The notes: generated by a model not told the origin, from the sequence alone. A stretch of DNA of 64,000 bases from an uncultured Aliarcobacter sp. (GCA_963664305.2 CAXXLV010000001.1:256001-320000); one strand, 5' to 3'; numbered from the stretch's first letter, positions 39,770 to 63,900 are shown. Translations and numbers: made by a program.

Positions 39770-39799
39770 ACGATTTTTATGCGATTATTTTTTTATATT
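39770..39799 (+). promoter_or_regulatory. Direct-repeat box ACGAT-N6-GCGAT plus -10 (TATATT) upstream of pheA
   Basis: ACGAT 39770-74, GCGAT 39781-85, 8-nt spacer, TATATT 39794-99. Confidence 0.65.
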
Positions 39800-39834
39800 A
39801 TAGTTAATAACTAGAATGTAAAAAGGATTAATTT

Positions 39835-40845
39835 ATGAATAACAAAGAAATAAACAAAATTAAAGAAATTGAAGAAATCGATAAAACAATATTAAAACTT
39901 TTTACGAAAAGAAATAAAATAATAAAAAACTCTTCTGATTTAAATTTTTCATCTTATGATAAAAAACTCATAGAGAAAATTAGAGATGATAATTTTCTTA
40001 AATTATTAGAAATATCACCAAAACCTTTAGATGAAGAAAATGAAAAAATAGTTTATTTAGGGCCAGAAGGAAGTTATACTCAAGAAGCAGCTATTAATAA
40101 ATTTGGGATAGATAATAATTATTATTCTGTAAATTCTATAAAAAATATTTTTTATGAAGTAAGTGAAAATAGAGCTAAATATGGAATTGTTCCTATTGAA
40201 AATAGTTCAAATGGAATGGTTGGAGATACAATAAATTCATTTAATACTTATAATTTAAATATCATAGGTGAAACTGTTATTGATATTCATCATACACTTG
40301 TTAGCAATTGCAAAAAAATTGAAGATATTAAAATAATTTATTCAAAAGATATTGCTTTTGACCAATGTTCAATTTTTTTAGAGAACTATCATCTAAATGA
40401 AGTACAATATGAATATGTTGATTCAACAACAAAAGCAGCAAAATTAGCTTCTCAAACACCTAATAGCGCAGCAATATGTTCTAATCTTGCAGCAAAAACA
40501 AATAATATTCCTATTTTATTTAGTAATATTGAAGATAATAAAGATAACAAAACTAGATTTTTTGTCATAAGTAAACAAATTACAAAAAAAACAGAAAATG
40601 ATAAAACTTCTATAATAGTTCAATTACCAAATAAATACGGATGTTTAATTGACTTTTTAAATGATTTTAAAGAACATAAAATAAATCTAAATAAAATAAA
40701 ATCCCACATCGTAAAAGGTATTTCAACTTTTTTTATAGAATTTGATGGGCATAAAAATGATTCAAATATAAAAAAAGTTTTAAATAAACACAAAAAGAAC
40801 ATAAAAGTTTTAGGTTCTTATAAAAAAGAAATTGAAGATATTTAA
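39835..40845 (+). CDS. pheA: Prephenate dehydratase (PheA-like) with shortened/degenerate chorismate mutase N-terminus
   Basis: YLGPEGSYT, GIVPIENSSNG, NKTRFFVI (TRF motif), C-terminal ACT domain. Confidence 0.85.
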   Translation: MNNKEINKIKEIEEIDKTILKLFTKRNKIIKNSSDLNFSSYDKKLIEKIRDDNFLKLLEISPKPLDEENEKIVYLGPEGSYTQEAAINKFGIDNNYYSVNSIKNIFYEVSENRAKYGIVPIENSSNGMVGDTINSFNTYNLNIIGETVIDIHHTLVSNCKKIEDIKIIYSKDIAFDQCSIFLENYHLNEVQYEYVDSTTKAAKLASQTPNSAAICSNLAAKTNNIPILFSNIEDNKDNKTRFFVISKQITKKTENDKTSIIVQLPNKYGCLIDFLNDFKEHKINLNKIKSHIVKGISTFFIEFDGHKNDSNIKKVLNKHKKNIKVLGSYKKEIEDI

Positions 40846-40849
40846 GCCT

Positions 40850-40879
40850 GCGATAAATTTGCGATTGAATTTCTATAAT
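40850..40879 (+). promoter_or_regulatory. Direct-repeat box GCGAT-N6-GCGAT plus consensus -10 (TATAAT) upstream of the porin gene
   Basis: GCGAT 40850-54 and 40861-65, 8-nt spacer, TATAAT 40874-79. Confidence 0.75.
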
Positions 40880-40943
40880 CTTCTCCTTCATAGTTCTAAT
40901 TTTTTAGAATTATATTACTGTAAGGAATAAGGAGAGAATAAGT

Positions 40944-42137
40944 ATGAAAAGAATTACAAGATTAAGTACAGTTGCTATATTAAGTTTATCTTCTATGGTA
41001 ACTTTTGCAAATGCTAGTGAAAATTTAGCAGATGCATTTACAAATGGTAAAATTAAGGGTCAAATAAAATCTGTTTACTCTAATTCAAATTTCTTAGGAA
41101 ATGTTAAATCAGATGACATAACAACTATTGGTGGTAGTCTAGGTTTTATAACAGATGATTTTTATGGATTTAATGCTGGTGCTACATTCCAAACTTCTCA
41201 TGTGTTAAATCAAGATAATAATAACAATGTTTTTAGTTCTGATTTAGATGCTCAAGGTTCAGTTTTATCAGAAGCTTATGTTAGTTATAAATTAGCAAAT
41301 ACAAGTGCTAAAATGGGTAGACAGTTTATTTATACACCTCTTGTAAGCAGTGCTATAGATGGAAAAGCATCTGAAAGTTTAATAAAAGATTCTTTTGAAG
41401 CTTATGTACTTACAAATACAGATATTCCAGATACAACATTAATGGGAAGTTATATTGATAAATATCAAGCAAAAGCTACATCTGGAGATATTAGAAGCTT
41501 TGAACAATTTGAAGATGGGGCTTATACTTTTTATGCAAAAAACACATCAATAAAAGATTTAACATTACAAGCACAATATCTTAAAGTAAATGCAATTGCA
41601 ACTGATTCGGATATACAAAATTTATATTTCCAAGCTGATTATATGTTAGCTGGGCATACATTATCAGCTCAATATTTATCATCAACAGATGAATCAAAAG
41701 CTTCAAATTTAGAAGATGCAGAATTATTTGGACTTAAAGCAACTGGACCAGTAGGTTTAGGAAAATTAGGTTATGTAGTTGCATATAATTCAAGTACAAA
41801 AGATGGAGAAGTAAATTTAGGAAAAGGTAGTGGAACTACAGATACACCTTTTACAGCTATGCCAGTTAATGGTGGAGGTGTTCCTTCAAGAGCGGATACT
41901 GATACTATTGTAGGAGGATTAATTGTACCTGTATATGATGTTACTTTTGTAGGATATGCTGGTAAATCATTCTCAAAAACTCATGTTCTTGGTGATGTAA
42001 CAGCTACAGGAGCAATGGCAATTTATCCATTCTATAAAAACTTTTTATTAAAAGCTAATTATGAACATGTTGAAGTTGAGAAAGTAATTACTGAAAATAC
42101 TGATGTATCTAGAATTTATTTATCTTACTCATTTTAA
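40944..42137 (+). CDS. Outer-membrane porin (OprD/Campylobacterota MOMP-like)
   Basis: Signal peptide, LADAFTNGKIKG, LSEAYVSY...K.GRQ...TPL, C-terminal RIYLSYSF. Confidence 0.8.
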   Translation: MKRITRLSTVAILSLSSMVTFANASENLADAFTNGKIKGQIKSVYSNSNFLGNVKSDDITTIGGSLGFITDDFYGFNAGATFQTSHVLNQDNNNNVFSSDLDAQGSVLSEAYVSYKLANTSAKMGRQFIYTPLVSSAIDGKASESLIKDSFEAYVLTNTDIPDTTLMGSYIDKYQAKATSGDIRSFEQFEDGAYTFYAKNTSIKDLTLQAQYLKVNAIATDSDIQNLYFQADYMLAGHTLSAQYLSSTDESKASNLEDAELFGLKATGPVGLGKLGYVVAYNSSTKDGEVNLGKGSGTTDTPFTAMPVNGGGVPSRADTDTIVGGLIVPVYDVTFVGYAGKSFSKTHVLGDVTATGAMAIYPFYKNFLLKANYEHVEVEKVITENTDVSRIYLSYSF

Positions 42138-42153
42138 TGTAAGGATTTAATAA

Positions 42154-43200
42154 ATGATATCTATAAAACAACCAATACTTGGTATTTTATCTACTATTTT
42201 AATAGTTGCTTTTTCATTAATAATTAGTACAAGCTTTGAATTATCAACATTTGGTTCATGGATTACTTTAATTATTATGGTGATGGTACCAGTACAAATA
42301 ATAATGACTTTATTTATGGGAAATTCTGTTTGTCAATTTATAGATGTTTTATCTCAACCCAAAAAAGCTTTAATAAACTCAGTTATTATGATTAATTTTG
42401 GGGTAATTGTATTTGTAATTATTCAATTATTATTTGAAGGTTTAGGTTCAAAACCAACACCATTTTCTATAATGTATTGTATTAATACAGTTATCATAAC
42501 TTTTTGGTTGGTTGTAGTATTTGCTGGTTGGCCTATTAGATTAATCTCAGATAAAGTAATAGCAGGAATTGTTCTCTTAGTTAGTGCAATGGTAATTAGT
42601 TATATAACTTTTAAATTACTGTATGATTTTTCAGATTTTGAACCTGCTCCATTTTATAATGTAATGCTAGATCCAAAAGGTTTATTTGGAGCATGGGATA
42701 TATTATCATTTATGGTAACAACATTAGCAGTAATTTTAGCTTGGGTTATATTAGATTTTTTCCCAATCGGACCAAAACCTGAGAATCCAATATTAAGAAT
42801 TTTAACTGTTACTTTTCCAGTATTAATAGTTACTTATATTTTTTGGAAATTAGGTATAAATTATATTGGCGATCCAGTTAAATTTATGGTGGATGTTACT
42901 ATTTCTTTTATTTTTGGAGAGTTTATTGTTTTACTTATGATGGAAACAGCACCCGTTCAAGCAGTAAAACAACCAATAAAAGGAATAATTTTAATTATTC
43001 TTGCAATTATTCTTGCATTTATTTGTAATTTTATTTATACACATGTAATAACAAGTATATATCCTCAAATAAGTTCGGGCGCGCCGACTTATGATATAGA
43101 AATGTGGAAAGCATCAGCAATGTTAGCAATAACATTTCCAATATTTGTTCTATTTAGTCAGATATTCAACTTCTGGCCATTAAGAGATAGTTCAAAATAA
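42154..43200 (+). CDS. Uncharacterised polytopic inner-membrane protein (~10 TM)
   Basis: Alternating hydrophobic segments; co-oriented 16 nt after the porin with AAGGA RBS. Confidence 0.75.
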   Translation: MISIKQPILGILSTILIVAFSLIISTSFELSTFGSWITLIIMVMVPVQIIMTLFMGNSVCQFIDVLSQPKKALINSVIMINFGVIVFVIIQLLFEGLGSKPTPFSIMYCINTVIITFWLVVVFAGWPIRLISDKVIAGIVLLVSAMVISYITFKLLYDFSDFEPAPFYNVMLDPKGLFGAWDILSFMVTTLAVILAWVILDFFPIGPKPENPILRILTVTFPVLIVTYIFWKLGINYIGDPVKFMVDVTISFIFGEFIVLLMMETAPVQAVKQPIKGIILIILAIILAFICNFIYTHVITSIYPQISSGAPTYDIEMWKASAMLAITFPIFVLFSQIFNFWPLRDSSK

Positions 43201-43297: not shown

Positions 43298-44583
43298 TTA
43301 TATATTTATATATGAAAATATATATAAAACTACAATACTAATAAAATACATCTTAAAACTATAAAATATATTTAATTTAAATATCTCTCTTGCATCAAAA
43401 TTATATCTTGAAACTATAGTCAGATTAGAACCACTAAAAGGTGAAGTAGCAACTGTAGTAGCCCAAGCCATCAAAAAAACTAATGCCAATAAAGTATGAT
43501 TTACTTGATTTAATAAATCTCCAACTATTGCAATTGTAATAAGAGGATGAATTCCTATAAATCCTAAAAAAATAAAAATTGCTAATAAAATAGAAGCAAT
43601 AATCCAATCAAATTGTTCAAATGGAAGTTCTAAATTCAATCCTAAAAGAAATGAGCTCATTATAACACCAAACATTCCAGCAACTAAGAAAAGTGAAATT
43701 TCCCCTTTCATTTTGGAAGTTCATAAAAAATATGAGTTTTTATCTCAATTATTGCTTTTTTCATATTTATTTTAATTGGTAAAATTACAAATACCAATAA
43801 AAATGAGAATAGAGATATCAAAATAATAACTTTAACATTAGGGAAAAAGTAATTTGTCATTAATACTAAAAAAGCCAAAGACAAAGGTAAATATAAACTA
43901 CTTAAAGAAATAGGATAACCTTCAAATTCATTTATTAAATTTTTTTTATCATTTTTCACTTCAATATAAGTAATTAAAAATCCAATTATAGACAAGATTA
44001 ATCCATTTATTAAAATTATTGAAGTATTTAATTTTGGCATATAAACAACAGCTGCTGCAAATGCAACAAAAAAAGGTGACCAATATGCATCATTTGCAAA
44101 AGAACGGCTAAGCAATATGATTTGAGTATTTGTTAAAATGTTTTTCTTATACATCTTATCTGCAATTAAAATAAGAGCTGAAAGATTTATAACTGATGCA
44201 AATAAATGAACTCCTAAATAAGTTTTTATAAATGAATTTATACCTTTTGGTGGAATTTCATTTATATCTGTTTTATTTGGAATTGCTATTAACCTCAAAA
44301 AACCAACTCCAATTAATAATGTAATTAAATATTGATTTACCGTAAAAATATTATAAAAATTTATTGTAAAAGAATTAAATAAGCATATTAATAAAAAAAT
44401 AAAACTCAACGATAATAAAATCAACAAAAGTTTTTTCTTTTGTAAAGTTTTAAAAAATATAAAAAAAGAAATCCAAGCACATAAACCTGAAATTATCAAT
44501 AAATCTTTATAAAAAAAGTATGCACAAATACTTAATATAAAAGACAAAAATATTAAGATACCTATTAAATATGAACTATTCAT
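43298..44583 (-). pseudogene. Membrane transporter-like gene split into two ORFs (43708-44583 and 43298-43711) by an apparent 1-nt frameshift
   Basis: Junction reads CTT CCA AAA TGA AAG; one extra A gives the continuous ...ELPK-MKGEISLF...; both halves are hydrophobic. Confidence 0.6.
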
Positions 44584-44585
44584 AA

Positions 44586-45461
44586 TTAAATAAATAAAAA
44601 ATAAAGAACAATTGGAATTATAAATAAACTAGCTATATTTCCAATTGCAACTATAGAAGCAACTGCTCCTGAATCATGACCATATTTTTCAGCCATAAGT
44701 GAATTTACTACAGCAGGTGGCATTGCACCAAAAAGTATCAATAAACTCTTTTGCAAAGGTGTGTATTCAAAAAAATATATTGCAATTAATGCCATAATTA
44801 TTCCAGAAAGAGGACAAAGAATTGCCCCAAGTATTCCTATTTTTAAATGAGAAAAATTAATATTAGATAACCTAACTCCCAATGAAAACAAAATCAATGG
44901 AATAGAAATTTGAGATAACATAATCAATGGTTCATTAAATAATTGTGGTAAATGAAATCCAAAATAGTTAAATAACAAACCAATAATTGTTGCTAAAATC
45001 ACAGGATTTTTAAATAGATTTATTAGTTTTACTTCTCCACCATACATTACTATCGCTATTGTGAATTGCCCAATAATTTGAATTATAGATAAGGCTATAA
45101 ATAAAGCCATTGCTTCATGACCAAAAGCAAATAAAGCCAAAGGTAAACCCAAATTTATAGAATTATTAAACATCATAGAAGGTAAAAAAGTTCGTGGATT
45201 GATTTTTAAAATTTTTGTTAATGGATATAAGATTAAACCTGAACCTAAAACCACTATAACTGCACCAAATGAAAAACTTGTTAATGTTGTAATGGAAGGT
45301 AATTTTTCACTTATTGCATAAAAAACCAATATTGGTATAAAAACATCAAGATTTATTTTATTTGGTATTTCCATACTAACTTTTTCTTTTTTAGCATAAA
45401 AATATCCTATAAGTGCAATCAATATTACAGGGAATATAATTTCAAAAATTTTAAGTACCAT
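44586..45461 (-). CDS. AEC (auxin efflux carrier/malate permease) family transporter
   Basis: FNNSINLGLPL..FAFG, KNPVILA, IPLILFSLG, AMPPAV. Confidence 0.88.
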   Translation of the reverse strand: MVLKIFEIIFPVILIALIGYFYAKKEKVSMEIPNKINLDVFIPILVFYAISEKLPSITTLTSFSFGAVIVVLGSGLILYPLTKILKINPRTFLPSMMFNNSINLGLPLALFAFGHEAMALFIALSIIQIIGQFTIAIVMYGGEVKLINLFKNPVILATIIGLLFNYFGFHLPQLFNEPLIMLSQISIPLILFSLGVRLSNINFSHLKIGILGAILCPLSGIIMALIAIYFFEYTPLQKSLLILFGAMPPAVVNSLMAEKYGHDSGAVASIVAIGNIASLFIIPIVLYFLFI

Positions 45462-45478
45462 TTTTAAAATTCTTCAAA

Positions 45479-46417
45479 TTATTTTTTATAATAAATAAAT
45501 TCTAACAATGTAGAAATTGTTCTTGTATAGGGAGCATCTAAACCTAAAGCTTCACAATTTTTTATTACTACATTACAAATTTCATCTAATTCTAATTCTC
45601 TATTATTTTCAACATCTACTAACATTGATGGTTTTATTGAATCAAATTTTGTAATTAATTCAAACATTTCATCTACTTCTTCTTTTGGAATTTTTATTCC
45701 TTTATTTAAAGCTGCTTGAGCTGTTTCATTCATCAATCCATAAACAATTTTTGATAACTTTTCATGTTGCATAATAACACCAGTTTTTTCTCTTAAAAGT
45801 GCACAAATTGCATTTACACCATTATTGATTATCAATTTTTTCCAAAGTTCAAGATTTATATTTTGAGATATTTGTGTTGGAATTTTTGCTTCGTTAAATA
45901 CCTTTTCTAATTTTTGTAAAAATATTTGATTTTCTTCAGTTTTTTCAATAGCACCTAAAATTGTTTCAGCTGTTCCAGTAGCACTAATAAATGCAGGACT
46001 TACAATATGAGCGCCTATTTTTCTCGTAAGTCCTGCAATTATATGTGTTTTAATCAAATTAGTAGAAAGGATCTCTTCGTTATCTACACCATTTTGAAGT
46101 GAGATAACGTAGGGAATGTTTTTTTCATTACCAAACCAACTCTGCAAATGTTTTGATAATGATATAGTTGAAGTCGATTTAGTGGCAATTAGAACAGCAT
46201 CAAAAGAAAAAATGTTCATCTCTTTAACTTGGGAGAGTGAATGTGAGATAACTTTTTTTTGAAAATGAAATTCTGGGTGATGCAACTTCAACTCATTTTG
46301 CTGTAAAGCTTCTAACTGCTTTCCTCTTGCAACAAAGACTACATCATGTGCTGCCTCGATTAATCTTGCGCCAAAATAAGAGCCTATACCACCAGTACCC
46401 AGAATTAAAAATTTCAT
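45479..46417 (-). CDS. panE: 2-dehydropantoate 2-reductase (ketopantoate reductase family)
   Basis: GTGGIG, SLQNGV, LWKKLIIN, KPSMLVD...ELE. Confidence 0.85.
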   Translation of the reverse strand: MKFLILGTGGIGSYFGARLIEAAHDVVFVARGKQLEALQQNELKLHHPEFHFQKKVISHSLSQVKEMNIFSFDAVLIATKSTSTISLSKHLQSWFGNEKNIPYVISLQNGVDNEEILSTNLIKTHIIAGLTRKIGAHIVSPAFISATGTAETILGAIEKTEENQIFLQKLEKVFNEAKIPTQISQNINLELWKKLIINNGVNAICALLREKTGVIMQHEKLSKIVYGLMNETAQAALNKGIKIPKEEVDEMFELITKFDSIKPSMLVDVENNRELELDEICNVVIKNCEALGLDAPYTRTISTLLEFIYYKK

Positions 46418-46431
46418 TTTATACCTTTTGA

Positions 46432-47253
46432 TTATTTCTCAGAAAAGAAGTTTAATAATAGATTATTAAATCTGTCTTTATGTTCAATTTGCGTCCAATG
46501 TCCACATTGTCCAAAAACATGTAATTGAGATTTTAATATAAGTTGATTTAATCTAATTGAATTTTGTAAAGGAATAACTTTATCTTCTCTTCCATGTATA
46601 ATTAAAACTTCTTTATCAATTTTTTTGATGTCATTTTCACAACTCATCATAGAATCAACACCATTTTGTCTAGGAGCTGGGAACATTGAACCAAATGATT
46701 CTTGGAATCCTGGTCTAATACTTGCTTCATATCTCATCTTTGCTAAGTCATCAGTTACAATACTTCTATCATAAGCAAAAATATCAAGTAATTCTTTCAT
46801 ATTTTCAATACTTGGAGTATATCCCCATGCTTTATCTAAACCATAAGTCAAATCAAAATAAACCCCAACGGCACCCATTAAAACAACTTTATTAAATCTA
46901 TTTGGATATTTAATAGTTAAAGCTAAAGCTAAAGCTCCACCAAAAGAGTTACCAACTAAATTTGTTTTTTCAATACCTAATGCATCCATTAAATCAATAG
47001 TTTGTTGAACCCATGTATCCATATTATATGTAATACCTTCTGGTCTATCTGAGTATCCAAACCCAACCATATCAGGAGCAATAACTCTGAATTTTTCAGC
47101 TAAAACTGGCATAGTACCTCTCCAATTAGCATAAGCTGAAACACCTGGTCCTGAACCATGAATAAACATAATTGGTTCACCACTACCTAAATCATGATAA
47201 TTTGTATTAAAACTTCCTGTTTTAATATTATTTGCAATTTCTGGATTTGACAT
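46432..47253 (-). CDS. dmpD: 2-hydroxymuconate semialdehyde hydrolase (DmpD/XylF)
   Basis: HGSGPGVSAYANW, GNSFGG nucleophile elbow, HGREDKVIP, CGHWTQIEH. Confidence 0.93.
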   Translation of the reverse strand: MSNPEIANNIKTGSFNTNYHDLGSGEPIMFIHGSGPGVSAYANWRGTMPVLAEKFRVIAPDMVGFGYSDRPEGITYNMDTWVQQTIDLMDALGIEKTNLVGNSFGGALALALTIKYPNRFNKVVLMGAVGVYFDLTYGLDKAWGYTPSIENMKELLDIFAYDRSIVTDDLAKMRYEASIRPGFQESFGSMFPAPRQNGVDSMMSCENDIKKIDKEVLIIHGREDKVIPLQNSIRLNQLILKSQLHVFGQCGHWTQIEHKDRFNNLLLNFFSEK

Positions 47254-47271
47254 ATTTTCTCCTTAATAATT

Positions 47272-48276
47272 TTATAAATTGAACTCTTTTGCTAAGAGTT
47301 CATAAGATTTCATTCTATCTTCAAATGAGTAAGTTACATTTACAATCATAACTTCCTCTACACCATACTCTAAAGCTAATTTTTCTATTTTTTCTTTGCA
47401 CTCTTTTGGAGTTCCTAAAATCATAGAATCTAACGTTTCTTTATAATAAGCTTTATCTTCAAAACTTAATTCTTCATACAATTTTTCAACATCACTTGGG
47501 CTATGTAATCCATCACGAGTAGGATGTCTAAATGCCTGAACTTTCCAATATGTATGCGAACATGCTATCTCTTGCGCTTTTTCTTTTGAATCAGAACAAA
47601 TACAAGCAACAGCAATCATTGCTTTTGGTTTTTTAAAATTTTTAGATGCTTTAAAATTTTTTTTGTAACTATCTATAATTTGTATTGGTCTATCATGAGT
47701 TCCAATAAATAGTGCTAAACAAAAACCAGCACCTAATTTTCCAGCTAAAATACTACTTCCATCACTAGAACCAAGTAAATAAACAGGTGTAGAATTAACA
47801 TTTTTAGGAGATAGATTTACTCCATAAAAATAATCATTTTTAGGAACTTTATCATCCAAATAATTTATAAGATCATAGGCTTTTTTAGTATAATCTCCAC
47901 TATTTGAATTATGTAAGGCACGAGCAGCTAAAAAATTAGCGCCATTTGCTCTTCCAATTCCTAAATCAATTCTATTATTATGTAAAGCACTTAGTGTATT
48001 AAAAGTTTCAGCAACTTTAAATGCACTATAATGATTTAACATAACACCACCACTTCCAACTCTAATAGTTTTAGTTGCATCTGCAATTGTACTTACCATT
48101 ATTTCTGGACATGCACTTGCATATCCAGGAGTGTCATGATGTTCTGCACACCAATATCTGTAATAACCTAATTCTTCACATCTAGTTGCTAGTTTTATAG
48201 TGTCAAATAAGGCTTCTTTATCTTCTTTTCCATCATGTATTGGTGATTGATCAAGTACACTTAATTTTAAATTCAT
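47272..48276 (-). CDS. Luciferase-like (LLM class) flavin-dependent oxidoreductase
   Basis: LSVLDQSP, RYWCAEHH, IRVGSGGVML.HYS..KVAE.F, RIDLGIGRA. Confidence 0.9.
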   Translation of the reverse strand: MNLKLSVLDQSPIHDGKEDKEALFDTIKLATRCEELGYYRYWCAEHHDTPGYASACPEIMVSTIADATKTIRVGSGGVMLNHYSAFKVAETFNTLSALHNNRIDLGIGRANGANFLAARALHNSNSGDYTKKAYDLINYLDDKVPKNDYFYGVNLSPKNVNSTPVYLLGSSDGSSILAGKLGAGFCLALFIGTHDRPIQIIDSYKKNFKASKNFKKPKAMIAVACICSDSKEKAQEIACSHTYWKVQAFRHPTRDGLHSPSDVEKLYEELSFEDKAYYKETLDSMILGTPKECKEKIEKLALEYGVEEVMIVNVTYSFEDRMKSYELLAKEFNL

Positions 48277-48284
48277 AATAAATT

Positions 48285-48476: not shown

Positions 48477-48485
48477 GAGTTTTCC

Positions 48486-55380: not shown

Positions 55381-56328
55381 TCAAATTTTTTTGTTTTTTT
55401 CTTCAAGAACTTCAATAAGTTCCTTAACAGCGTTAATTGATTCACTAAATTGTGACTGTTGTTCTTTAGTTAAATCCAGTTCAATTATCTTCTCAACACC
55501 ATCTTTGCCTAAAATTACAGGAATTCCTGCAACAACATTTTCATATCCATACTCACCATTTAACATCACAGAACATGGATAAATTTCTTTTTTATCATTT
55601 AATATTGCATCTATCATTACGGCTGTTGAATTAGCAGGTGCAAAGTAAGCAGAACCTGTTTTTAGTAAATTTACTATTTGTGCTCCACCATTTTTTGTTT
55701 GATTGATAATTTCATCTATATCCTCTTTAGATAAAACCTCATCCAAAAATTTATTTGATACTTTTGAGTAAGAAACTAAAGGAACCATTTCATTCCCATG
55801 TCCACCCATCACAGAAGCAGCTATCTCATTTTTTTTAGAATTTAATTTTTCATATATAAAATGGCTCATTCTTGCACTATCTAAAATTCCAGCCATTCCA
55901 AAAATTTTATTTCTTGGCCATTTTGAAACTTCAAGTGCTTTATAAACCATTGCATCTAAAGGATTTGATACAATGATAATTATTGCATTTGGGTTATATT
56001 TAATAACATCACTTATCAATGATTCAATAATCCCTGCATTTATATGTAATAAATCATCTCTACTCATTCCAGGTTTTCTAGCAATTCCAGCAGTAATAAC
56101 AACAACATCACAATCATAAAAATCTTCACTTTTAGATATTGCAAATATTTTTGCTTTATCATTTGTTGCAAAAGTAGCTTGTGAGATATCTAACATCATT
56201 GCAGTAGTTAAATCTTCACGAATATCTTTTAGTAATATTTCTGAACAAATATTTTTTAAAGCTAATGTATAAGCTAAAGTTGCACCAACATTCCCAACAC
56301 CAATTATTCCAACTCTTTTACTCTCCAC
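55381..56328 (-). CDS. mdh: Malate dehydrogenase (LDH-like)
   Basis: GVGNVG, TAGIARKPGMSRDDL, VSNPLD, LDSAR, GGHG, GSAYFAPA. Confidence 0.92.
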   Translation of the reverse strand: MESKRVGIIGVGNVGATLAYTLALKNICSEILLKDIREDLTTAMMLDISQATFATNDKAKIFAISKSEDFYDCDVVVITAGIARKPGMSRDDLLHINAGIIESLISDVIKYNPNAIIIIVSNPLDAMVYKALEVSKWPRNKIFGMAGILDSARMSHFIYEKLNSKKNEIAASVMGGHGNEMVPLVSYSKVSNKFLDEVLSKEDIDEIINQTKNGGAQIVNLLKTGSAYFAPANSTAVMIDAILNDKKEIYPCSVMLNGEYGYENVVAGIPVILGKDGVEKIIELDLTKEQQSQFSESINAVKELIEVLEEKNKKI

Positions 56329-56354: not shown

Positions 56355-56384
56355 GTTATATAAATCCAATCGCTTTCTAATCGC
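56355..56384 (-). promoter_or_regulatory. Direct-repeat box GCGAT-N6-GCGAT plus -10 (TATAAC) upstream of mdh
   Basis: Plus strand ATCGC 56380-84 and 56369-73; GTTATA 56355-60 (8-nt spacer). Confidence 0.75.
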
Positions 56385-56444: not shown

Positions 56445-57698
56445 ATGGCAAAAAAATTTTCACTTACTTTTATAATAATAGGAATAATTGGAGTAATTTC
56501 TCTGGATAAATTAATAGAGATATTTTCTAAAAACAATGAATTGTCTCAAGAAGGTCCATTTTCAATTGCAATCTTTTTTATGATTACAACAGGAATTATT
56601 TTATACTTCATAATACATCATATGGAAAAAGTAATTGAAAAAATAGATAAATCATATAATGAATTAAAAAGAAAAGATAAAAGTAGAATTGCACCTTATG
56701 AATTTTCCCTTGATAATTCTGTTGATTCTATTCACTGGTTAAATTTAGATGGAAAATTTTTATATGTAAATGAATCAACATGTAGAATGGAAGGTTATAC
56801 TAAAGAAGAATTTAAAGATATGTATTTGGAAGATATTGACCCATCATTTGATAGAGAAGGTGCTAAAAAATGTATGCAAGATATAAAAAATACTGAAAAT
56901 TGGAGATTAGAATCTACTCATAAAAGAAAAGATGGAAGTATATATCCTGTAGAAGTATCTGGACATGCATTTATTTTTGAAGGACAAGAATATATTTGTG
57001 CTTTTGCAAGAGATATCACTCAAAGATTAGAAGATAAAAACAATATAACAAAAATAAATCAAGAACTACAAAAATCTTTAGCAGAAAAAGAGATGTTATT
57101 AAAAGAGATTCATCATAGAGTAAAAAATAATATGGAAATCATTTCTTCTTTATTAAATATGCAAGCAAGAAGAAGTGATGATATAAATTTCAAAAATGCA
57201 ATGAAACAAAGTAGAAGTAGAATTCTTACAATGGCTCTTGTTCATGAATTTTTATATTTAGGTGAAAATTTAGCCTACATAAATATTCAAGAATATATAA
57301 AAAAATTAGTTCAAGATATAAAAGAATTGTACATTTCTCAAAATACAAATTTAGAAGTTGATTTACATATTGATAATTTAATATTTTCAGCAAATAGATG
57401 TATTCAAGTAGGAATGATTTTACACGAATTATGCGTAAATTCTTTAAAATATGCTTTTGAAGAAAATAGAAAAAATCTTTTATGTATTCATATAAATAAA
57501 ATCAATGATGATATTAATATAAAAATTAGAGACAATGGAGATAAAGAAATTGATATAACTAATTTACAAAAAAGGGACTCTATTGGATTACAATTAATTT
57601 ATTCAATAGTTGATTTTCAATTGCATGGAAAATTAGAATTTAAAATAAATAGAGGATTGGAATGTAATATCACATTCCCAGAAAAGGAAGAGATATGA
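56445..57698 (+). CDS. Sensor histidine kinase: 2 TM, PAS, HisKA_2, HATPase
   Basis: PAS (DGKFLYVN...GYTKEEF...KRKDGSIYPVEV...ARDIT), LLKEIHHRVKNN H-box, ELCVNSLKYAF N-box. Confidence 0.9.
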   Translation: MAKKFSLTFIIIGIIGVISLDKLIEIFSKNNELSQEGPFSIAIFFMITTGIILYFIIHHMEKVIEKIDKSYNELKRKDKSRIAPYEFSLDNSVDSIHWLNLDGKFLYVNESTCRMEGYTKEEFKDMYLEDIDPSFDREGAKKCMQDIKNTENWRLESTHKRKDGSIYPVEVSGHAFIFEGQEYICAFARDITQRLEDKNNITKINQELQKSLAEKEMLLKEIHHRVKNNMEIISSLLNMQARRSDDINFKNAMKQSRSRILTMALVHEFLYLGENLAYINIQEYIKKLVQDIKELYISQNTNLEVDLHIDNLIFSANRCIQVGMILHELCVNSLKYAFEENRKNLLCIHINKINDDINIKIRDNGDKEIDITNLQKRDSIGLQLIYSIVDFQLHGKLEFKINRGLECNITFPEKEEI

Positions 57699-58453
57699 TA
57701 AAAACAAAAATACTTATTGTAGAAGATGAACCAATAATTGCTTTAAATTTACAAGAAACTCTAGAAGAATTAGGTTATGAAACTTTTGGTATTACTAATA
57801 ATAGATGTAGAACTTTAGAATTACTAAAAAGTGAAGAAATACCTGATTTAATATTAATGGATATTTATTTACAAGGCCCTACAACTGGAATACAATTAGC
57901 TAAAGAATTAAAAAATTCATTACCAAATGTTCCTATAATCTTTTTAACAGCAAATTCTGAATATGCAACAATCAAAGAAGCTTCAGAAACTTTTGCTTAT
58001 GGATATTTAGTAAAACCTTATAAAAAAAATACTCTGTTTGCGACTATTGAATTAGCATTAAAAAAAGCAAAAGAAGAACTTACTCAGAAATTAGATTTTG
58101 AGTCATTAAAAAATATAAACAAAACTTTAGAGCATAAATTAACACTGAATCAAGAATCAAAGTCAAGAACAATTAAACTCAAATATGGTTATTTATTTGA
58201 TAAAGAAAAAGAAATTTTGTATTATGGAGATGAAGTAGTAAAACTAACAAATAAAGAAACAGATATCATCAAAGCTTTATGTAAAACTCCTGGTCAAAAG
58301 ATTTCTCAAGAACAATTAGAATATGCAATTTGGCAAAATGAACCAGCTGGTTATGCTGCTTTTAGGTCTGTATTATTCAGACTTAGAAATAAAATACATA
58401 AAGATTTAATAACTAATCAAAATAACACAGGATATAGAATAGAACTTTTATAA
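57695..58453 (+). CDS. Response regulator, receiver + OmpR/PhoB-type winged helix
   Basis: IVEDE, LMDI, FLTA, YLVKP; C-terminal LTNKE...EQLEYAIW...RSVLFRLRNKI...GYRI; overlaps kinase stop (ATGA). Confidence 0.9.
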   Translation: MIKTKILIVEDEPIIALNLQETLEELGYETFGITNNRCRTLELLKSEEIPDLILMDIYLQGPTTGIQLAKELKNSLPNVPIIFLTANSEYATIKEASETFAYGYLVKPYKKNTLFATIELALKKAKEELTQKLDFESLKNINKTLEHKLTLNQESKSRTIKLKYGYLFDKEKEILYYGDEVVKLTNKETDIIKALCKTPGQKISQEQLEYAIWQNEPAGYAAFRSVLFRLRNKIHKDLITNQNNTGYRIELL

Positions 58454-58460: not shown

Positions 58461-59267
58461 TTATATCAATGAATAAATCATTTTTATACTAAGAGCTAAA
58501 GGTATTAAAGAGAATAATTTTTTCATCAAATCTACATTTATTTTATGAACTAACATAACTCCAACTGGAGCAGTTAAATAACTTGCAAAGGCAACACAAA
58601 TAAGTGCAGGGATTGAAACAAAACCTAAAGTATAAGTCTCCATTGAAGTATGACTCCAACCGTTTATTATATATCCTATAGTTCCAGAAATTGCAATTGG
58701 TAAACCAATAGCTGAAGATGTAGCAATTGCTTTTTTGATATCAATATTTTGAATTAATAAATATGGAACACTCATTATTCCTCCACCAATAGAAACAAGT
58801 GAAGATAAAGCTCCAATTGCACTACCTGATAAAATATGTGTTTTTGCTGTGAAAATTTTATTTTCTGGTTTTGGTTTTTTACCAATAAACATCATAACGG
58901 CTGAATAAAACATAAAACAAGCAAAGATTATAGATAAATAAAATGAGTCTAATTTTGAAGCTATAAATGTGGCTAAAAAAGTTCCTATAATAATACCTGG
59001 AACCATCATTTTAACAACATCCCAAACTATTGCTTTTTTCTTTTGTTGAGCTTTGATACTTGAAATTGAAGTAATAATTATAATAGCCATTGAAGTTCCT
59101 AAAGCTAAGTGAACAACGCTATTTTCAGCTATTGTATTATTTGCTAAAAACATAGCTGTTAAAACAGGAACAATAATTCCTCCACCACCTATTCCAAAAA
59201 GTCCAGAAACTACTCCAACAAATGAACCTAAGGCTAAAAAATAAATAATTGTTTGAATATCTAACAT
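58461..59267 (-). CDS. TauE/SafE (TSUP) family membrane exporter
   Basis: GLFGIGGGGIIVP, ALGTS, SIGGG...VP, AIATS. Confidence 0.9.
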   Translation of the reverse strand: MLDIQTIIYFLALGSFVGVVSGLFGIGGGGIIVPVLTAMFLANNTIAENSVVHLALGTSMAIIIITSISSIKAQQKKKAIVWDVVKMMVPGIIIGTFLATFIASKLDSFYLSIIFACFMFYSAVMMFIGKKPKPENKIFTAKTHILSGSAIGALSSLVSIGGGIMSVPYLLIQNIDIKKAIATSSAIGLPIAISGTIGYIINGWSHTSMETYTLGFVSIPALICVAFASYLTAPVGVMLVHKINVDLMKKLFSLIPLALSIKMIYSLI

Positions 59268-59283
59268 GATAATCCTTTAAAAT

Positions 59284-59316
59284 AAAAAAAGATACAACTT
59301 TATAGTTGTATCTTTT
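59284..59316 (-). terminator. Intrinsic terminator after dmpP
   Basis: AAAAGATACAACT-N4-AGTTGTATCTTTT perfect stem followed by a T-run on the minus strand. Confidence 0.8.
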
Positions 59317-60373
59317 AGATAGATTTAAAAAGTGGACTTTTTATTTTATCGCTGTGCAGGTCAGCTTTTGAGAAGAATTTTTCAGTATGTATATCTTTTT
59401 CAAATAATCTTCCTTGCATAAGTGCAGTAATACAAGCTTCACTCATCATTGGAGGTCCGCATAAATATGCTTTATTTCCTGCAAATTGATTATTATAAAG
59501 TTTTTTAGCTACATCATTTGTAAATCCAATTTCACCAGCCCATGATGGATTTTCATTATTTGATAAAACTGGAACATACCTAAAATTATCATATTTCTTT
59601 TCTAAATCTCTGAACATATCAGCATAATAAAGTTCTTCTTCATTTCTTGCACCATGAAACAAAGTAATTGGTTGAGTACAACCATTTTCTAACTCATCTA
59701 AAATCATAGATTTTGGACTTGAAAGTCCCGAACCACCTGCAAAAAATATCATTGGTTTTTGTGCTGATTTTTTTACAAAAAATCTTCCAAAAGGACCAGT
59801 GATTTTTCTTCTATCTCCAACTTTTACATTTTGATGAATCCAAGGTGTTGCTTCACCATCAGGAATAAGTCCAATATTTAATTCAATTACTTTTCCAGTA
59901 CTTGGTTGATTCGCTAGTGAAAATGCTCTTGGTTCATCAAATCCTGGAACATGATAATTTATATATTGACCAGCTTGAAAATCTAACTCTTCATCAAGTT
60001 CAATCCAAAGTCCTAAGATTCTTGGAGTTAACATCTCTCTTTTGATAACTGTTCCCCAAACATCTTTAACTTTTATACTTCTAGCATCAACATCCACATC
60101 AATATCAGCTTCAATAACAACATCATTAATTGCTGTTGCTGTACAAGCCAAACAAAAACCATCTTCTCTTTCACTCTCCATCAAAGCAAAATATGAAGCA
60201 TCACCTAAATCAACCTCTCCTTCTAAAACCTCAACTTTACAAGTTCCGCAAAGTCCGTGATTACAAGCATGAGGAAGATAAACCCCTTGTCGTAGAGCTG
60301 CATCAAGAAGGGTTTGCCCTTCTTGAACTTCTACTATATCACCTGTTGGTTCTATTTCTAATTTACAAGCCAA
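59315..60373 (-). CDS. dmpP: Phenol hydroxylase reductase P5
   Basis: CNHGLCGTC [2Fe-2S], FQAGQY, RAFSLAN, GGSGLSSPKSM, YLCGPP. Confidence 0.95.
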   Translation of the reverse strand: MACKLEIEPTGDIVEVQEGQTLLDAALRQGVYLPHACNHGLCGTCKVEVLEGEVDLGDASYFALMESEREDGFCLACTATAINDVVIEADIDVDVDARSIKVKDVWGTVIKREMLTPRILGLWIELDEELDFQAGQYINYHVPGFDEPRAFSLANQPSTGKVIELNIGLIPDGEATPWIHQNVKVGDRRKITGPFGRFFVKKSAQKPMIFFAGGSGLSSPKSMILDELENGCTQPITLFHGARNEEELYYADMFRDLEKKYDNFRYVPVLSNNENPSWAGEIGFTNDVAKKLYNNQFAGNKAYLCGPPMMSEACITALMQGRLFEKDIHTEKFFSKADLHSDKIKSPLFKSI

Positions 60374-60374
60374 T

Positions 60375-60734
60375 TTATGCTCCTACTTTACCTATCAAAT
60401 CTGGTGTTTTAAAAGTGATAAATGATTTATGTCCAACACCATTTTCTTTTAAACTTTTTGAAAAATCAGGTGTTATAACTTTTCCATCAACTTCCCAAAT
60501 AACTTCTGTTTTATCAAAATCTAAATCTTTAAAATCTAGTTCAATTTTATATGTTACTGGAATTAAATCAGAAATTATCGCACCAAAAGGCATTTCAGGA
60601 GGTAATGGAAATGCTCTTGGAGAGCTAACTACTCTATGTCCATACCAATATAGATACACTAATTGATTTCCATGAAATTTATCTACACTATCTTTCATTA
60701 TGATTGGATATTCTCCAATTGATTGAATTGCCAT
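60375..60734 (-). CDS. dmpO: Phenol hydroxylase gamma subunit P4
   Basis: FHGNQLVYLYW..H, PPEMPFG, PDFSKSLKENGVGHKS. Confidence 0.93.
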   Translation of the reverse strand: MAIQSIGEYPIIMKDSVDKFHGNQLVYLYWYGHRVVSSPRAFPLPPEMPFGAIISDLIPVTYKIELDFKDLDFDKTEVIWEVDGKVITPDFSKSLKENGVGHKSFITFKTPDLIGKVGA

Positions 60735-60745
60735 TTTTTCTCCTT

Positions 60746-62260
60746 TTATTTATTTCTTAATTTGTTCCACATAGCTTCATCAGGAGAACCTATATAATCC
60801 ATATTATCTACACCATGTTCTATTTTGTACCATTTTAAAACTTCTGGAATAGTAGCTCCACCACAGTTTCCTTGGAATATTTGATGTGGAGGTAACCAAG
60901 CTTGAACATATTTTTCAGGCTGTGCATCAAATATATCTTTACATCCATCAGAACAAGTATGGAAAATTTCTCCATTATATTCAGATGTTTTATGTGTATA
61001 AACATGTGGATTTCCACCTTCGATATCTGTAAATCCTAATGGAATTTGACAAGTTTGACAAATCAAAGGTAAAGTTTCAGAATAATATCTTTCCCCTTTT
61101 TCTTGTAAAGCTATATATCTTTCAAACATTGGTCTATAATATTTATCAAAAGTATCTGGATATTTTTGACTTAACCAATTCATTTTTTCTTCGTCTGGCA
61201 TCCAAATATGAATATTTGCAGCATTTGTATGATTATAGAAAATATTCCATACTTGATGAGATAAATGCCCTTTTTCAGCAATAATTGTATTTACTAATTT
61301 TTCAGGAATTTTAATTCCATATTTTTCTAAATCTTTATATAAGGCCATACAGTTTTGTTCGATATATAATTCAACTGCTTCTGCCCAAGATGTTGGAGAG
61401 TTAGGTAGCATATAATCCATCATCATAGCTACAAGACCTAACATTCTGTAACCTCTCCATAACCATTTATCCATCCATTTTTGAACAATTGGAACATTAT
61501 CTGCATCTTGTTCTAACATGAATTTAATAGCTGATAATCCTAAAGTCATATGTCTTGATTCATCACTTTGTGCAGAAAAACCAAATGTAACTGTTGCCAT
61601 ATCTCCATTATAAGCAGCTCCACTCATAAATGGAACAAATAATAAACTTGTTAATACAAATTCAAAAGAGAATGAAATAGCTGTTAAATATTCAAAAGGT
61701 CCTGCTGTACTTGCATCATCTCCAAATGATTTTGGAACTGATAAATACCAAACTCTATCATGCATTGTTCTAAAATTATGAAAACCATTAAAATATTTAT
61801 TATAATGACTCATTGTATGTACTTGAGTTTGGAAATGTCTTAACTCATCAATAGCTTGCATTTGGCATGCAATTGAAGCACCCTCACCTTTAAAAGCACG
61901 TGCTGCGTGAGAAAAACCTTGAACAACTTTATATTCAAGTGGTGTTACACCTGTTAAAAATAGTTTTAGTGCATTTACATATCTTGCATCTGAAATATTT
62001 TTTTGTGCATTGTTTTGAGCAAAAGCATCAATAATTGAATAAAGTTTTTTATCTTTTTCAGCTTGTAATTTCCAATAAGAATCCATTGTCATTCTAAATG
62101 GATCTTCCCATGCTTCCCAATCATGAATTTTCAATCCTTCCATTTTTAAAAAAGGAAAAACATCTTCTTCTTTTTGGTAAGTTGGATCCCAACCAAGTCT
62201 AGTCATATATTTATATGCATCTTTTTTATTTAATCTTTTTTTTCTAGGTTCTACACTCAT
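60746..62260 (-). CDS. dmpN: Phenol hydroxylase alpha (diiron) subunit P3
   Basis: WEDPFR, two ExxH motifs (DELRH, DESRH), HDRVWYLSVPKSF, YHS-like CSDGC. Confidence 0.97.
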   Translation of the reverse strand: MSVEPRKKRLNKKDAYKYMTRLGWDPTYQKEEDVFPFLKMEGLKIHDWEAWEDPFRMTMDSYWKLQAEKDKKLYSIIDAFAQNNAQKNISDARYVNALKLFLTGVTPLEYKVVQGFSHAARAFKGEGASIACQMQAIDELRHFQTQVHTMSHYNKYFNGFHNFRTMHDRVWYLSVPKSFGDDASTAGPFEYLTAISFSFEFVLTSLLFVPFMSGAAYNGDMATVTFGFSAQSDESRHMTLGLSAIKFMLEQDADNVPIVQKWMDKWLWRGYRMLGLVAMMMDYMLPNSPTSWAEAVELYIEQNCMALYKDLEKYGIKIPEKLVNTIIAEKGHLSHQVWNIFYNHTNAANIHIWMPDEEKMNWLSQKYPDTFDKYYRPMFERYIALQEKGERYYSETLPLICQTCQIPLGFTDIEGGNPHVYTHKTSEYNGEIFHTCSDGCKDIFDAQPEKYVQAWLPPHQIFQGNCGGATIPEVLKWYKIEHGVDNMDYIGSPDEAMWNKLRNK

Positions 62261-62281
62261 AATATCTCCCTTATTTTTGTA

Positions 62282-62557
62282 TTAGTTATTCCAATAAACG
62301 ATGAATTCATCATCTGTTTCTTCTACTTGTCCACCTAAAGAAATAAGTACTAATTGTAATTCTTCAGGATCCCAATCTCTTCCTAAAGCTTCTGATACTG
62401 TAGAAGCTTTTACAGTAATTTTTTCTGGTCTCTCAATTTGAATCATTGCTGGTTTATTAGTAATTATTACACCTTCATTATCTTCTTTGATTGCTTCTGC
62501 TATTGTTCTTCCATCTTCTGTAGATTGAAGACATAATAATGCTATACTTGATGACAT
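62282..62557 (-). CDS. dmpM: Phenol hydroxylase effector/coupling protein P2 (MmoB/DmpM)
   Basis: I.EAI..DN, PAMI.I, LGRDWD..ELQ..LISLGGQVEETDD. Confidence 0.93.
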   Translation of the reverse strand: MSSSIALLCLQSTEDGRTIAEAIKEDNEGVIITNKPAMIQIERPEKITVKASTVSEALGRDWDPEELQLVLISLGGQVEETDDEFIVYWNN

Positions 62558-62581
62558 ACGTTTCCCTTTTATTATTAATTT

Positions 62582-63574
62582 TTATAAATTTATTTCACAG
62601 TTTTTTAATCTAACTATTAACTCTGTTTTAACATTAGATATAAGTTCTTTAGGATTGTTTGAAAATGAAGCTAAAGGTTCCATCGCATTTTCCATAATCT
62701 CTATGTCTTCTTTTACCCAACTAGTTAATAAATCTCTATTTTCAGTTGATTCTTTTGCCATAACTTTTATAACACTATCTAACCATTTAACTGTTTCTTC
62801 ATACCATGAAACGATAAATTCATTTAACATAGAAATAGTCATTTCATCATTTTGCGCTAACTCTTTTGAGAATTCATTAATCATTAAAGGAATTACAAAA
62901 CCATCAAAAACAACATTTTGTTTAACAAATAATCTAATTGGATCTTTTTCAACAAAAGAATCTTCAACTGCTTTTCTTAAACCTTGCCAATTAGGACAAT
63001 TTAACCAAGCATCTTTTCCAGCTTCTAATTTTGAAACATCATTATCAGAAAGAAGTAGAATTATTTTTGTTATGTGTTGAGCCATTCCAAGTCTATCTTC
63101 AGCTTGAAATAAACAAGCACTCATCATAGCCGTCCCATAAACTCTATCTACAATACAAAGATTATTCATATTTGCACCATACTCATAATGTCTTAATGGA
63201 GTTAAAAAATCATATACCTTTTGTAAATTATCTTTTTTTATAAAATTAACTAAACCTCTTTTTTCAACAAATTCAAAACTTTGTTCATTTGCAGCATTTT
63301 GAGAAGCTCTTGTTGATACATAAGACATATAATGAAATTTTCTTGGATCCAATAAGTCATACCAATCATTCATTTTGATTTTTGTTCTATTTTTATCATA
63401 TATTTCAAATTCAGGTTCCCATTGTGGCCTATAATGAAAATTCTCAGTTGGTTGTGCATCATACATAGCTTCTTCATATCTTGAAGCTGGTCTATCTTCA
63501 CCTAATCTTTGTGCAACATGACCAAAAGTATGTCTTATTGGTTCTATTTCAACACTAGCTATATTTAATTCCAT
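62582..63574 (-). CDS. dmpL: Phenol hydroxylase beta subunit P1
   Basis: P.RHTF.HVA.R.G..PASRYEE..YD.Q...NFHYRP.W.P; PLRHYEYGANMNN; WQGLR. Confidence 0.95.
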   Translation of the reverse strand: MELNIASVEIEPIRHTFGHVAQRLGEDRPASRYEEAMYDAQPTENFHYRPQWEPEFEIYDKNRTKIKMNDWYDLLDPRKFHYMSYVSTRASQNAANEQSFEFVEKRGLVNFIKKDNLQKVYDFLTPLRHYEYGANMNNLCIVDRVYGTAMMSACLFQAEDRLGMAQHITKIILLLSDNDVSKLEAGKDAWLNCPNWQGLRKAVEDSFVEKDPIRLFVKQNVVFDGFVIPLMINEFSKELAQNDEMTISMLNEFIVSWYEETVKWLDSVIKVMAKESTENRDLLTSWVKEDIEIMENAMEPLASFSNNPKELISNVKTELIVRLKNCEINL

Positions 63575-63588
63575 ATTTTCTCCTTAGT

Positions 63589-63822
63589 TTAATTTAACCC
63601 ATATTTCCAATTTTCATTGTCAATTAATAATTCATCTTCTTGTTCTTTTGTAAAAAACGATACTCTATTATTTTGACAAAATTCAATGAAAGCTTTGTAT
63701 GGTAAAAGTAATTCAACATTCATTACAGCTTCACCTACTGCAAAATTAAATTCAACAAATCCATTATCTTTTATATTTATGATTTGTACAAATTTTTTTT
63801 CATTTGGCATAAGTTCATACAT
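63589..63822 (-). CDS. dmpK: Phenol hydroxylase assembly protein P0
   Basis: FVEFNFAVG...VELLLP..AF.EFC..NRV...WKYG. Confidence 0.9.
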   Translation of the reverse strand: MYELMPNEKKFVQIINIKDNGFVEFNFAVGEAVMNVELLLPYKAFIEFCQNNRVSFFTKEQEDELLIDNENWKYGLN

Positions 63823-63870
63823 AAAAAACTCCTAATTAAATTACTCTTTTAGTTTCAAGAACAAGTGAAT

Positions 63871-63900
63871 ACTATGTAAATTAAATCGCAAATTATTCGC
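63871..63900 (-). promoter_or_regulatory. Direct-repeat box GCGAA-N6-GCGAT plus -10 (CATAGT) upstream of dmpK
   Basis: Plus strand TTCGC 63896-900 and ATCGC 63885-89; ACTATG 63871-76 (8-nt spacer). Confidence 0.7.

Follow-up and report, generated by a model that had tools for sequence, protein, structure and literature searches.

Which regulator controls phenol degradation in Aliarcobacter, and from which sites on the DNA? The question is raised by a stretch of 64,000 nucleotides from an uncultured Aliarcobacter sp. (the window, G000:C1:256001-320000 of a 2.78-Mb genome with 27% G+C), which contains a genomic island for phenol degradation with the phenol hydroxylase genes dmpKLMNOP, a meta-cleavage operon and genes for two-component systems. 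We suggest that a short direct repeat in the promoters of this island, GCGAW-N6-GCGAW, is the activator operator of the island response regulators RR2 and RR1, which would recruit RNA polymerase to seven transcription units. From the sequence comparisons presented here we consider this quite probable.

The original prediction, made from the window alone, had listed five such repeats, and all of them are found where it had placed them and on the strands it had given. A position matrix (PWM) was trained on 94 sites from other genomes, G000 excluded, and used to scan the whole of G000. The sites, their -10 hexamers and their PWM scores are:

39770..39785, plus strand: operator of the pheA paralogue, ACGAT-N6-GCGAT; -10 TATTAT at 39796-39801; PWM 25.5; orthologous sites in G032, G028, G005, G027 and G019
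40850..40865, plus strand: operator of the porin-like operon, GCGAT-N6-GCGAT; -10 TAATCT at 40876-40881; PWM 33.3; orthologous sites at the porA-like gene in G032, G028, G019, G005, G010 and G002
55351..55366, minus strand: operator of dmpQ and the meta-cleavage operon, GCGAT-N6-GCGAA; -10 TAAAGT at 55335-55340; PWM 36.7; 21 distinct orthologous sites, with TAnnnT at N10 in all
56369..56384, minus strand: operator of the mdh paralogue, GCGAT-N6-GCGAT; -10 TAACAT at 56353-56358; PWM 24.8; 7 distinct orthologous sites
63885..63900, minus strand: operator of dmpKLMNOP-tauE, GCGAA-N6-GCGAT; -10 TAGTAT at 63869-63874; PWM 32.3; 20 distinct sites overall
C1:323953-323968, minus strand: further operator, before the gene of a 627-aa methyl-accepting chemotaxis protein (MCP), ~4 kb past the window end
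C1:323988-324003, plus strand: further operator, before a short-chain dehydrogenase (SDR) gene followed by a leuB-like Iso_dh gene, ~4 kb past the window end

The five sites claimed earlier stand, but the total in the genome is seven. The two additional sites, those of the MCP and SDR genes, are located back to back within a single divergent intergenic region.

The repeats clearly exceed what is expected by chance. The strict motif GCGAWNNNNNNGCGAW (GCGAW-N6-GCGAW) has four matches in the window against 0.02 expected, and none of 100 dinucleotide shuffles reaches four. The composite pattern RCGAW-N6-RCGAW-N10-WANNNT has five matches against 0.00 expected, a count reached in 0/100 shuffles. Across the genome, where the scans leave out C1:80001-88000 of G000 (8000 bases read N), the strict motif occurs six times, every one within the 27 kb of C1:296850-323988. 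A looser form, RCGAW-N6-GCGAW, gives 13 matches, four of which are one identical multi-copy sequence, presumably the rRNA operons; seven of the nine others are found in C1:295770-323988. Single GCGAW half-sites occur 198 times in ~218.7 kb of intergenic DNA, from which ~0.09 chance pairs are predicted; for this count, and for the distances to the starts of open reading frames (ORFs) given below, crude ORF maps were used. The PWM scan of G000 returns seven hits of 24.8-36.7 bits, i.e., the five window sites and the two beyond, whereas the eighth has 14.2 bits. The repeat is thus near-exclusive to the island and not at background level, as the original prediction required. The repeats are thus real and occur far more often than chance predicts; judged by sequence, the predicted regulon in G000 is exactly seven promoters within 28 kb. 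Candidate members outside the island were rejected: the 14.2-bit hit, the best one there, is in coding sequence, and two intergenic one-mismatch sequences, C1:714593 and C2:1085198, fall below the PWM threshold.

The geometry of the sites is rigid. In an alignment of 101 distinct sites, from G000 and related loci, the direct repeats start at positions 1 and 12 in 101/101, i.e., the 11-bp period first noted in five promoters holds throughout. CGA is invariant in the half-sites, preceded by G or A and ended by T or A, and T flanks give an extended tGCGAWt, while the N6 spacer has a weak bias. Exactly 10 bp past the proximal half-site a hexamer begins, with T in 92, A (-11) in 100 and the final T (-7) in 100 of the 101 sites. 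TAnnnT has offset N10 in 91 sites, compared with N8 in six. The exceptions to N10 are ten sites, nine of which have AATAAT, preceded by TGT or GG. A nearly fixed distance between repeat and -10 had been claimed, and the distance is indeed fixed; however, the hexamers originally read at N8 for dmpK, mdh, porin and pheA are 2 bp off, and the conserved register is N10, as it is at dmpQ. With the corrected hexamers (TAGTAT, TAACAT, TAATCT and TATTAT, respectively) the spacing is equal at all promoters, and the single register holds across about 12 promoter classes. The claimed orientation toward the downstream gene holds as well, with 82/84 distinct strict sites facing a same-strand ORF start at most 200 nt away.

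Placing the hexamer at -12 to -7 puts the half-sites at about -38 to -34 and -27 to -23, i.e., in the -35 region. In the five window promoters, read directly, no -35 consensus is visible in this region, where the distal half-site and the spacer fall. Conservation does not extend to the TG of an extended -10, with G at position 26 in 28/101. The two bases at positions 21-22 (-18/-17), which lie between proximal half-site and -10, are T in 94/101 and 97/101, respectively, and this TT could be part of the regulator footprint or a lineage-typical T-rich -16 region. Outside the half-sites, this TT and the -10, the information is approximately zero, and the sites are therefore not copied cassettes. 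In all, the sites have the features of a pho-box-like element: direct repeats of 11 bp, held at a fixed position by the -10 and occupying a -35 region that lacks the consensus.

The candidate regulators are encoded next to these promoters:

56445..57698, plus strand: HK1 sensor kinase, with two N-terminal hydrophobic segments, PAS, HisKA_2 and an ATPase domain (Pfam); 61% identical to HK2
57695..58453, plus strand: RR1 response regulator, with receiver, 46-residue helix and OmpR-type winged helix (Pfam, model and fold matches); 71% identical to RR2
63958..64000, plus strand: 5' end of HK2; HK2 and RR2 run past the window (L001 958-2259 and 2256-3014)

HK2/RR2 are located between the dmpK and the MCP/SDR sites and are the only pair present in every related locus, while HK1/RR1 are found together with the mdh module (G000, G019, G005, G021 and several further loci). 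The original prediction had named the protein at 57695-58453 as the regulator. It does contain an OmpR/PhoB-type winged helix, but the universally conserved pair is HK2/RR2 by dmpK, not RR1. In both kinases the two hydrophobic segments are separated by a loop of ~18 residues, as read directly from the sequence.

RR1 and RR2 match the receiver family PF00072 with 80.9 and 72.6 bits, and this N-terminal receiver has a phospho-acceptor aspartate; D56, T85 and K107 do not vary among 23 orthologues; Trans_reg_C (PF00486) is matched with 37.5 and 41.2 bits, against a cut-off of 26.2. In an AlphaFold2 model from the 23-sequence alignment (pLDDT 82.4), the last receiver helix continues as a single 46-residue helix, residues 111-156, and the output domain is a canonical winged helix consisting of a four-strand sheet, three helices and a wing hairpin. 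Foldseek with the full-length model matches VanR, DrrB, KdpE, MtrA, PrrA, PmrA and CosR (E ~1e-13). The receiver with the long helix instead aligns best to EutV (6wsh and 6ww6; root mean square deviation 3.1-3.4 over ~155 columns, TM 0.65-0.66 by target), and the best sequence matches of the receiver are EutV, PdtaR-like and PhyR receivers rather than OmpR-type ones. The short flexible linker and the OmpR-type receiver of the OmpR/PhoB family are replaced here by helix 111-156 and a EutV-like receiver. By sequence and model, RR1 and RR2 have OmpR/PhoB domain composition but represent an atypical sub-type. It can be speculated, by analogy with EutV, that the long helix acts as a phosphorylation-controlled coiled-coil dimeriser. 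The recognition-helix region (...EPAGYAAFRS-LFRLR-K-HKDLI...) is near-invariant in the 23 orthologues of both paralogue clades and identical in RR1 and RR2, and therefore both should read the same operator. In metagenomes, 909 homologues are found at E <=1e-10, all with generic names, and some databases automatically name homologues PdtaR. Among the genes conserved in the loci compared, the kinase/regulator genes are the only ones involving a DNA-binding domain; no other DNA-binding protein is conserved there.

Regulator and motif also go together in other genomes. Orthologues with 69-86% identity to RR1 are present in 9 of 60 other genomes searched, all of them congeneric (9/36), and the remaining matches are at most 46% identical. 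The large subunit of the phenol hydroxylase (dmpN) is found in eight of the 60, i.e., the regulator-positive set minus G027. The numbers of strict sites near the regulator, out of the total in each genome, are:

G032: 3/4
G028: 3/4
G019: 6/7
G005: 8/9
G021: 4/5
G010: 3/3, multi-copy sequence left out
G002: 4/4, multi-copy sequence left out
G027: 3/3

The ninth genome, G009, is a fragmented assembly with three strict sites on three small contigs, one of which adjoins its regulator gene. As a control, five congeneric genomes without the regulator have 0, 0, 1, 1 and 0 strict sites, and a genome from another family, with a regulator that is 35% identical, has nine scattered sites against seven for the reversed pattern. 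The sites clearly co-occur and co-localise with regulator orthologues in the genomes compared, in line with the tie between motif and regulator that had been proposed.

At the level of single promoters, a site precedes dmpK in 7/7 other genomes whose dmpK locus was compared and dmpQ in 7/7; among the genomes compared it is also found before the porin-like gene in six, pheA in five, SDR in six, MCP in three and mdh in three. The orthologous pheA sites are mostly GCGAT-N6-ACGAT. In G010, mdh lacks its own site but immediately follows tauE as part of the dmpK operon, and operon fusion would thus keep it in the regulon. Spacers diverge while half-sites are kept (19 distinct spacers in 23 SDR sites, 9 in 20 dmpK sites). 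On the sequence, this is a phylogenetic footprint, and the half-site conservation is seen in eight congeneric genomes. A wider scan, with one genome per species, gave 32 loci with a regulator that is 62-94% identical, some of which coincide with loci of the congeneric genomes; they are titled Aliarcobacter, Arcobacter, Halarcobacter, Poseidonibacter and, in one case, a Sulfurospirillum metagenome-assembled genome. Of these loci, 27/32 have one or more strict sites, 64 in 574 kb altogether, and the promoter classes are the same. Conservation at orthologous promoters, expected from the original prediction, is thereby found at both scales.

The genes behind the seven sites are:

39835..40845, plus strand: prephenate dehydratase gene (pheA), second copy (Pfam PDT); the other PDT gene is C1:488269-488796
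40944..43200, plus strand: porin-like operon, with an Opr-like porin (NCBIfam Opr family porin, a weak match of 48.5 bits, below the 150-bit cut-off) and a 348-aa protein of no known family
43298..55282, minus strand: dmpQ unit(s), one or more transcripts, with dmpQ ferredoxin, C23O, HbpS-like, ALDH, hydratase, dmpF, dmpG, decarboxylase, LLM oxidoreductase, HMS hydrolase, ApbA-like, Mem_trans and two unknown genes (Pfam)
55381..56328, minus strand: malate/lactate dehydrogenase gene (mdh), second copy; the other copy is C2:761995-762411
58461..63822, minus strand: dmpK-L-M-N-O-P multicomponent phenol hydroxylase and a TauE-like permease (Pfam)
L001 3027-4910 (C1:322027-323910), minus strand: 627-aa chemoreceptor with a 4HB_MCP sensor, in the predicted regulon
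L001 5854-6921: leuB-like Iso_dh gene, second copy; the other copy is C2:378615-379649

The 348-aa protein has no Pfam hit, and the internal gaps of the dmpQ unit(s) contain no further operator site by the PWM scan. The recruitment of mdh, pheA and a porin operon had been proposed, and each of the three does have an operator of the conserved type; mdh and pheA are island-specific paralogues, not housekeeping genes. The MCP in the predicted regulon suggests inducible chemotaxis toward or away from phenolics. Upstream of the HK1 and HK2 operons no correctly oriented site was seen. The dmpK and mdh sites, which are within divergent intergenic regions, could be bidirectional elements, as PMC7755780 describes for PceP (see below), with autoregulation of kinase and regulator.

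Several observations in related genomes touch on the content of the island. In G027, the flanking genes are the closest to those of G000 (96-99% protein identity), yet the phenol genes are lacking (L014, G027:C1:2364001-2384000, ~7190-13750). The pheA and porin-promoter sites are here directly followed by an RR2 fragment from ~residue 54, and the MCP and SDR sites are intact. The pattern looks like a deletion of ~25 kb, from just past the porin promoter into RR2, that left orphan operators. G002 (L012/L013 concatenated 18608-22144) and L039 (~9631) have a further multicomponent monooxygenase operon, a distant one with 19-26% identity to dmpL/dmpN. It has its own site, GCGAT-N6-GCGAT or GCGAT-N6-ACGAT, which implies that the operator was recruited to another oxygenase. 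In genomes with HK1/RR1 (L038 10822-15573; G021, L033, L035, L036 and L040) a site precedes an ABC transporter operon with a Peripla_BP_6 binding protein, two ATPases and two branched-chain-type permeases, and its -10 is the extended-like TGT-AATAAT; no such operon is present in the island of G000. RNA-labelled wastewater and compost libraries from two studies contain contigs that are 90-99% like the phenol hydroxylase, mdh and regulator genes, i.e., close relatives of the island occur in those libraries. The RNA-labelled runs hold part of 55100-64000 of the window as contigs only, in small shares of 0.06-0.16, and four were compared at >=90% likeness.

From these data, the following mechanism can be proposed. 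The PAS-containing HisKA_2 kinases would sense phenol or a related aromatic, most plausibly through the cytoplasmic PAS domain, and phosphorylate the response regulator. Two winged-helix domains would then bind head-to-tail on the two half-sites, as in PhoB, and the regulator, positioned at about -38 to -23 in place of a -35 element, would recruit RNA polymerase in the class-II, pho-box-like manner. By this, seven units in 28 kb would be switched on: phenol hydroxylase, meta-cleavage, the porin-like operon, the chemoreceptor, SDR/leuB-like, the extra mdh and the extra pheA. The inducer is assigned as phenol or an aromatic because of the regulated genes alone.

The same regulator at the same operator could also be a repressor, which would occlude the polymerase at -38 to -23 until the aromatic signal releases it. 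The site does overlap the core promoter, and OmpR-family regulators are described in PMC4415409 as either activating or repressing. Given a reasonable -10 (TAnnnT in 91/101), unassisted transcription could be possible, as a strong -35 is not needed in this lineage according to PMC7755780. However, a rigid single register over about 12 unrelated promoter classes is what a face-of-helix contact with the polymerase would demand, whereas occlusion tolerates variable placement, and the fixed register to the -10 therefore favours activation by polymerase contact over simple occlusion. The poorly conserved extended -10 TG (28/101) suggests that the core promoters are weak, and in PMC7755780 an analogue of the same layout, studied by experiment, is interpreted as an activator. 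We consider repression unlikely, and activation appears distinctly the more probable of the two. A different factor might instead read the repeat, e.g., an unlinked transcription factor, the LysR protein encoded at 38755-39582 or an alternative sigma factor, while the kinase/regulator pairs do something else. Such a reading, which we find very improbable, draws on the motif being tied to RR1/RR2 by inference and on its co-occurrence with the whole island rather than with the regulator alone. Yet the LysR gene adjoins the locus in G000 only, and no alternative DNA-binding protein is conserved in the loci. The five congeneric genomes without the regulator also lack motif clusters, which would leave a core-genome factor without other targets. 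Furthermore, the -10 is sigma-70-like, tandem 11-bp repeats are typical of winged-helix regulators (PMC4415409), and G027 retains three sites beside a truncated RR2 remnant. Finally, short sequences in very AT-rich intergenic regions could pair by chance, as a by-product of composition or through duplication of a promoter cassette. The shuffles, none of which reach the observed counts, and the ~0.09 pairs expected genome-wide speak against this, as do the near-zero information outside the half-sites, TT and -10 and the orthologous conservation across genera, and we regard its probability as negligible.

Two other candidates for control of the island were rejected. The LysR-family gene (38755-39582, minus strand) is divergent from pheA and is found beside the locus in G000 only among the loci compared; it may be a second control layer, either for pheA or for the MFS and glyoxalase genes that follow it. 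For sigma-54/DmpR control, no Sigma54_activat domain is found in the locus, and the only strong hit in the genome is C1:732658-733158. The -24/-12 pattern is at background (21 observed against 20.5 expected), and the five promoter regions contain none.

Other points weigh against RR2/RR1 acting as activators at these sites. The -35 boxes of Campylobacterota are weakly conserved in general, as described in PMC7755780, and replacement of the -35 therefore argues less for activation than it would in E. coli. Occupation of -38 to -23 might just as well obstruct the polymerase, and with a EutV-like receiver and a 46-residue helix, the dimer geometry derived from PhoB may not apply. The reversed-pattern control is not always zero (G005 6, G002 6, G050 7, G009 2, G032 1, G016 1 and G029 1), so the raw counts are weak and the clustering carries the argument. 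Strict sites are absent from five of the 32 loci (L030, L039, L041, L042 and L048), whose regulators are 62-76% identical, although L039 has a one-mismatch site upstream of its second monooxygenase operon. The genomes are also related, and with dmpN 94-95% identical between species the island seems to have been passed on horizontally; the sites can therefore not count as independent samples. Nor can co-occurrence tell the regulator apart from the rest of the island genes. One RNA-library contig spans the dmpK promoter, but contigs of relatives give no starts, strand or induction.

How does the proposed regulon compare with known systems? Judged by analogy, its closest functional analogue is PceS/PceP of Sulfurospirillum, of which it is not a member. 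PMC7755780 reports that PceP, an OmpR-family regulator, binds 5-bp direct repeats overlapping the -35 at several island promoters, with CTATA repeated at six-nucleotide gaps. As far as described there, both systems belong to Campylobacterota, have an island-encoded kinase and an OmpR-family regulator, control, here by prediction, several units of a xenobiotic island and have 5-bp repeats over the -35 with an 11-bp period. However, the half-site is CTATW there and GCGAW here, and the functional pair is N17 there but N6 (adjacent) here. By the description in that paper, the PceS kinase has seven transmembrane helices and a periplasmic domain, in contrast to the two hydrophobic segments, PAS and HisKA_2 found here. 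The regulator, compared with PceP by description, differs in its EutV-like receiver and 46-residue helical linker, and the pathway and presumed signal differ as well. A two-component regulon with a direct-repeat operator is thus a known type, whereas half-site, spacing, kinase, receiver/linker and pathway are different from PceS/PceP.

The pho box lies 10 bp upstream of the -10. In PMC4415409 it is described as two 11-nt direct repeats, bound head-to-tail by PhoB. The likeness consists of two 11-bp direct-repeat units at the place of the -35, of class-II type, with head-to-tail binding predicted here. The half-site here is 5-7 bp, GCGAW, against a pho unit of 7 bp. PhoB is of the alpha4-beta5-alpha5 type with a short linker, unlike the EutV-like receiver and linker here, and its regulon is a global nutrient one rather than a local catabolic island. 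In Pseudomonas, sigma-54 activators of the DmpR/XylR type control dmp and phenol-hydroxylase operons in response to phenolics. The target genes are the same (dmpKLMNOP and the meta pathway), but the island has neither an NtrC-type activator nor a -24/-12 promoter; here, a two-component phosphorelay would act at sigma-70-type promoters. In TodS/TodT and StyS/StyR, a PAS-containing kinase senses an aromatic and the regulator activates catabolic promoters. TodS and StyS are large double-sensor hybrids, and TodT and StyR are of the NarL/FixJ helix-turn-helix type and act at upstream boxes, in contrast to the OmpR-type winged helix and the predicted site at -38 to -23 here. The ANTAR regulators EutV and PdtaR share the receiver and the long C-terminal helix, but their output is an RNA-binding ANTAR domain instead of a winged helix of DNA-binding type. 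Catechol meta-cleavage is documented in Arcobacter sp. CAB, and its regulation is not described in the part of PMC3656443 available. In the full-text literature covered, which leaves subscription journals outside, no description of the regulator, motif or regulon was found.

A wider interpretation is possible but tentative. The island may be a self-contained, horizontally shared Arcobacteraceae module to sense, swim, import and degrade, in which an undescribed regulator sub-family (EutV/PdtaR-like receiver, long helix and OmpR winged helix, with PAS-HisKA_2 partners) replaces sigma-54/DmpR control. Two paralogous systems would then respond to two aromatic signals through one operator, GCGAW-N6-GCGAW-N10-TAnnnT, and a chemoreceptor, a porin and spare, stress-proof versions of pheA, mdh and leuB would also be part of the regulon.

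The regulon content suggests that chemotaxis, uptake and degradation are coordinated, and it raises the question why spare pheA, mdh and leuB copies would be induced alongside phenol degradation. The prediction is clean (seven sites only in the genome, a fixed geometry and conservation across genera) and hence directly testable. The compact set of sensor, regulator and operator could be used in AT-rich hosts as a part for phenol biosensors. Wastewater, in which phenolics are of concern, harbours abundant Arcobacteraceae. If the proposed role of RR2 and RR1 is true, the Campylobacterota would have a two-component, OmpR-type, sigma-70 answer to a task that the textbook assigns to sigma-54 and DmpR.

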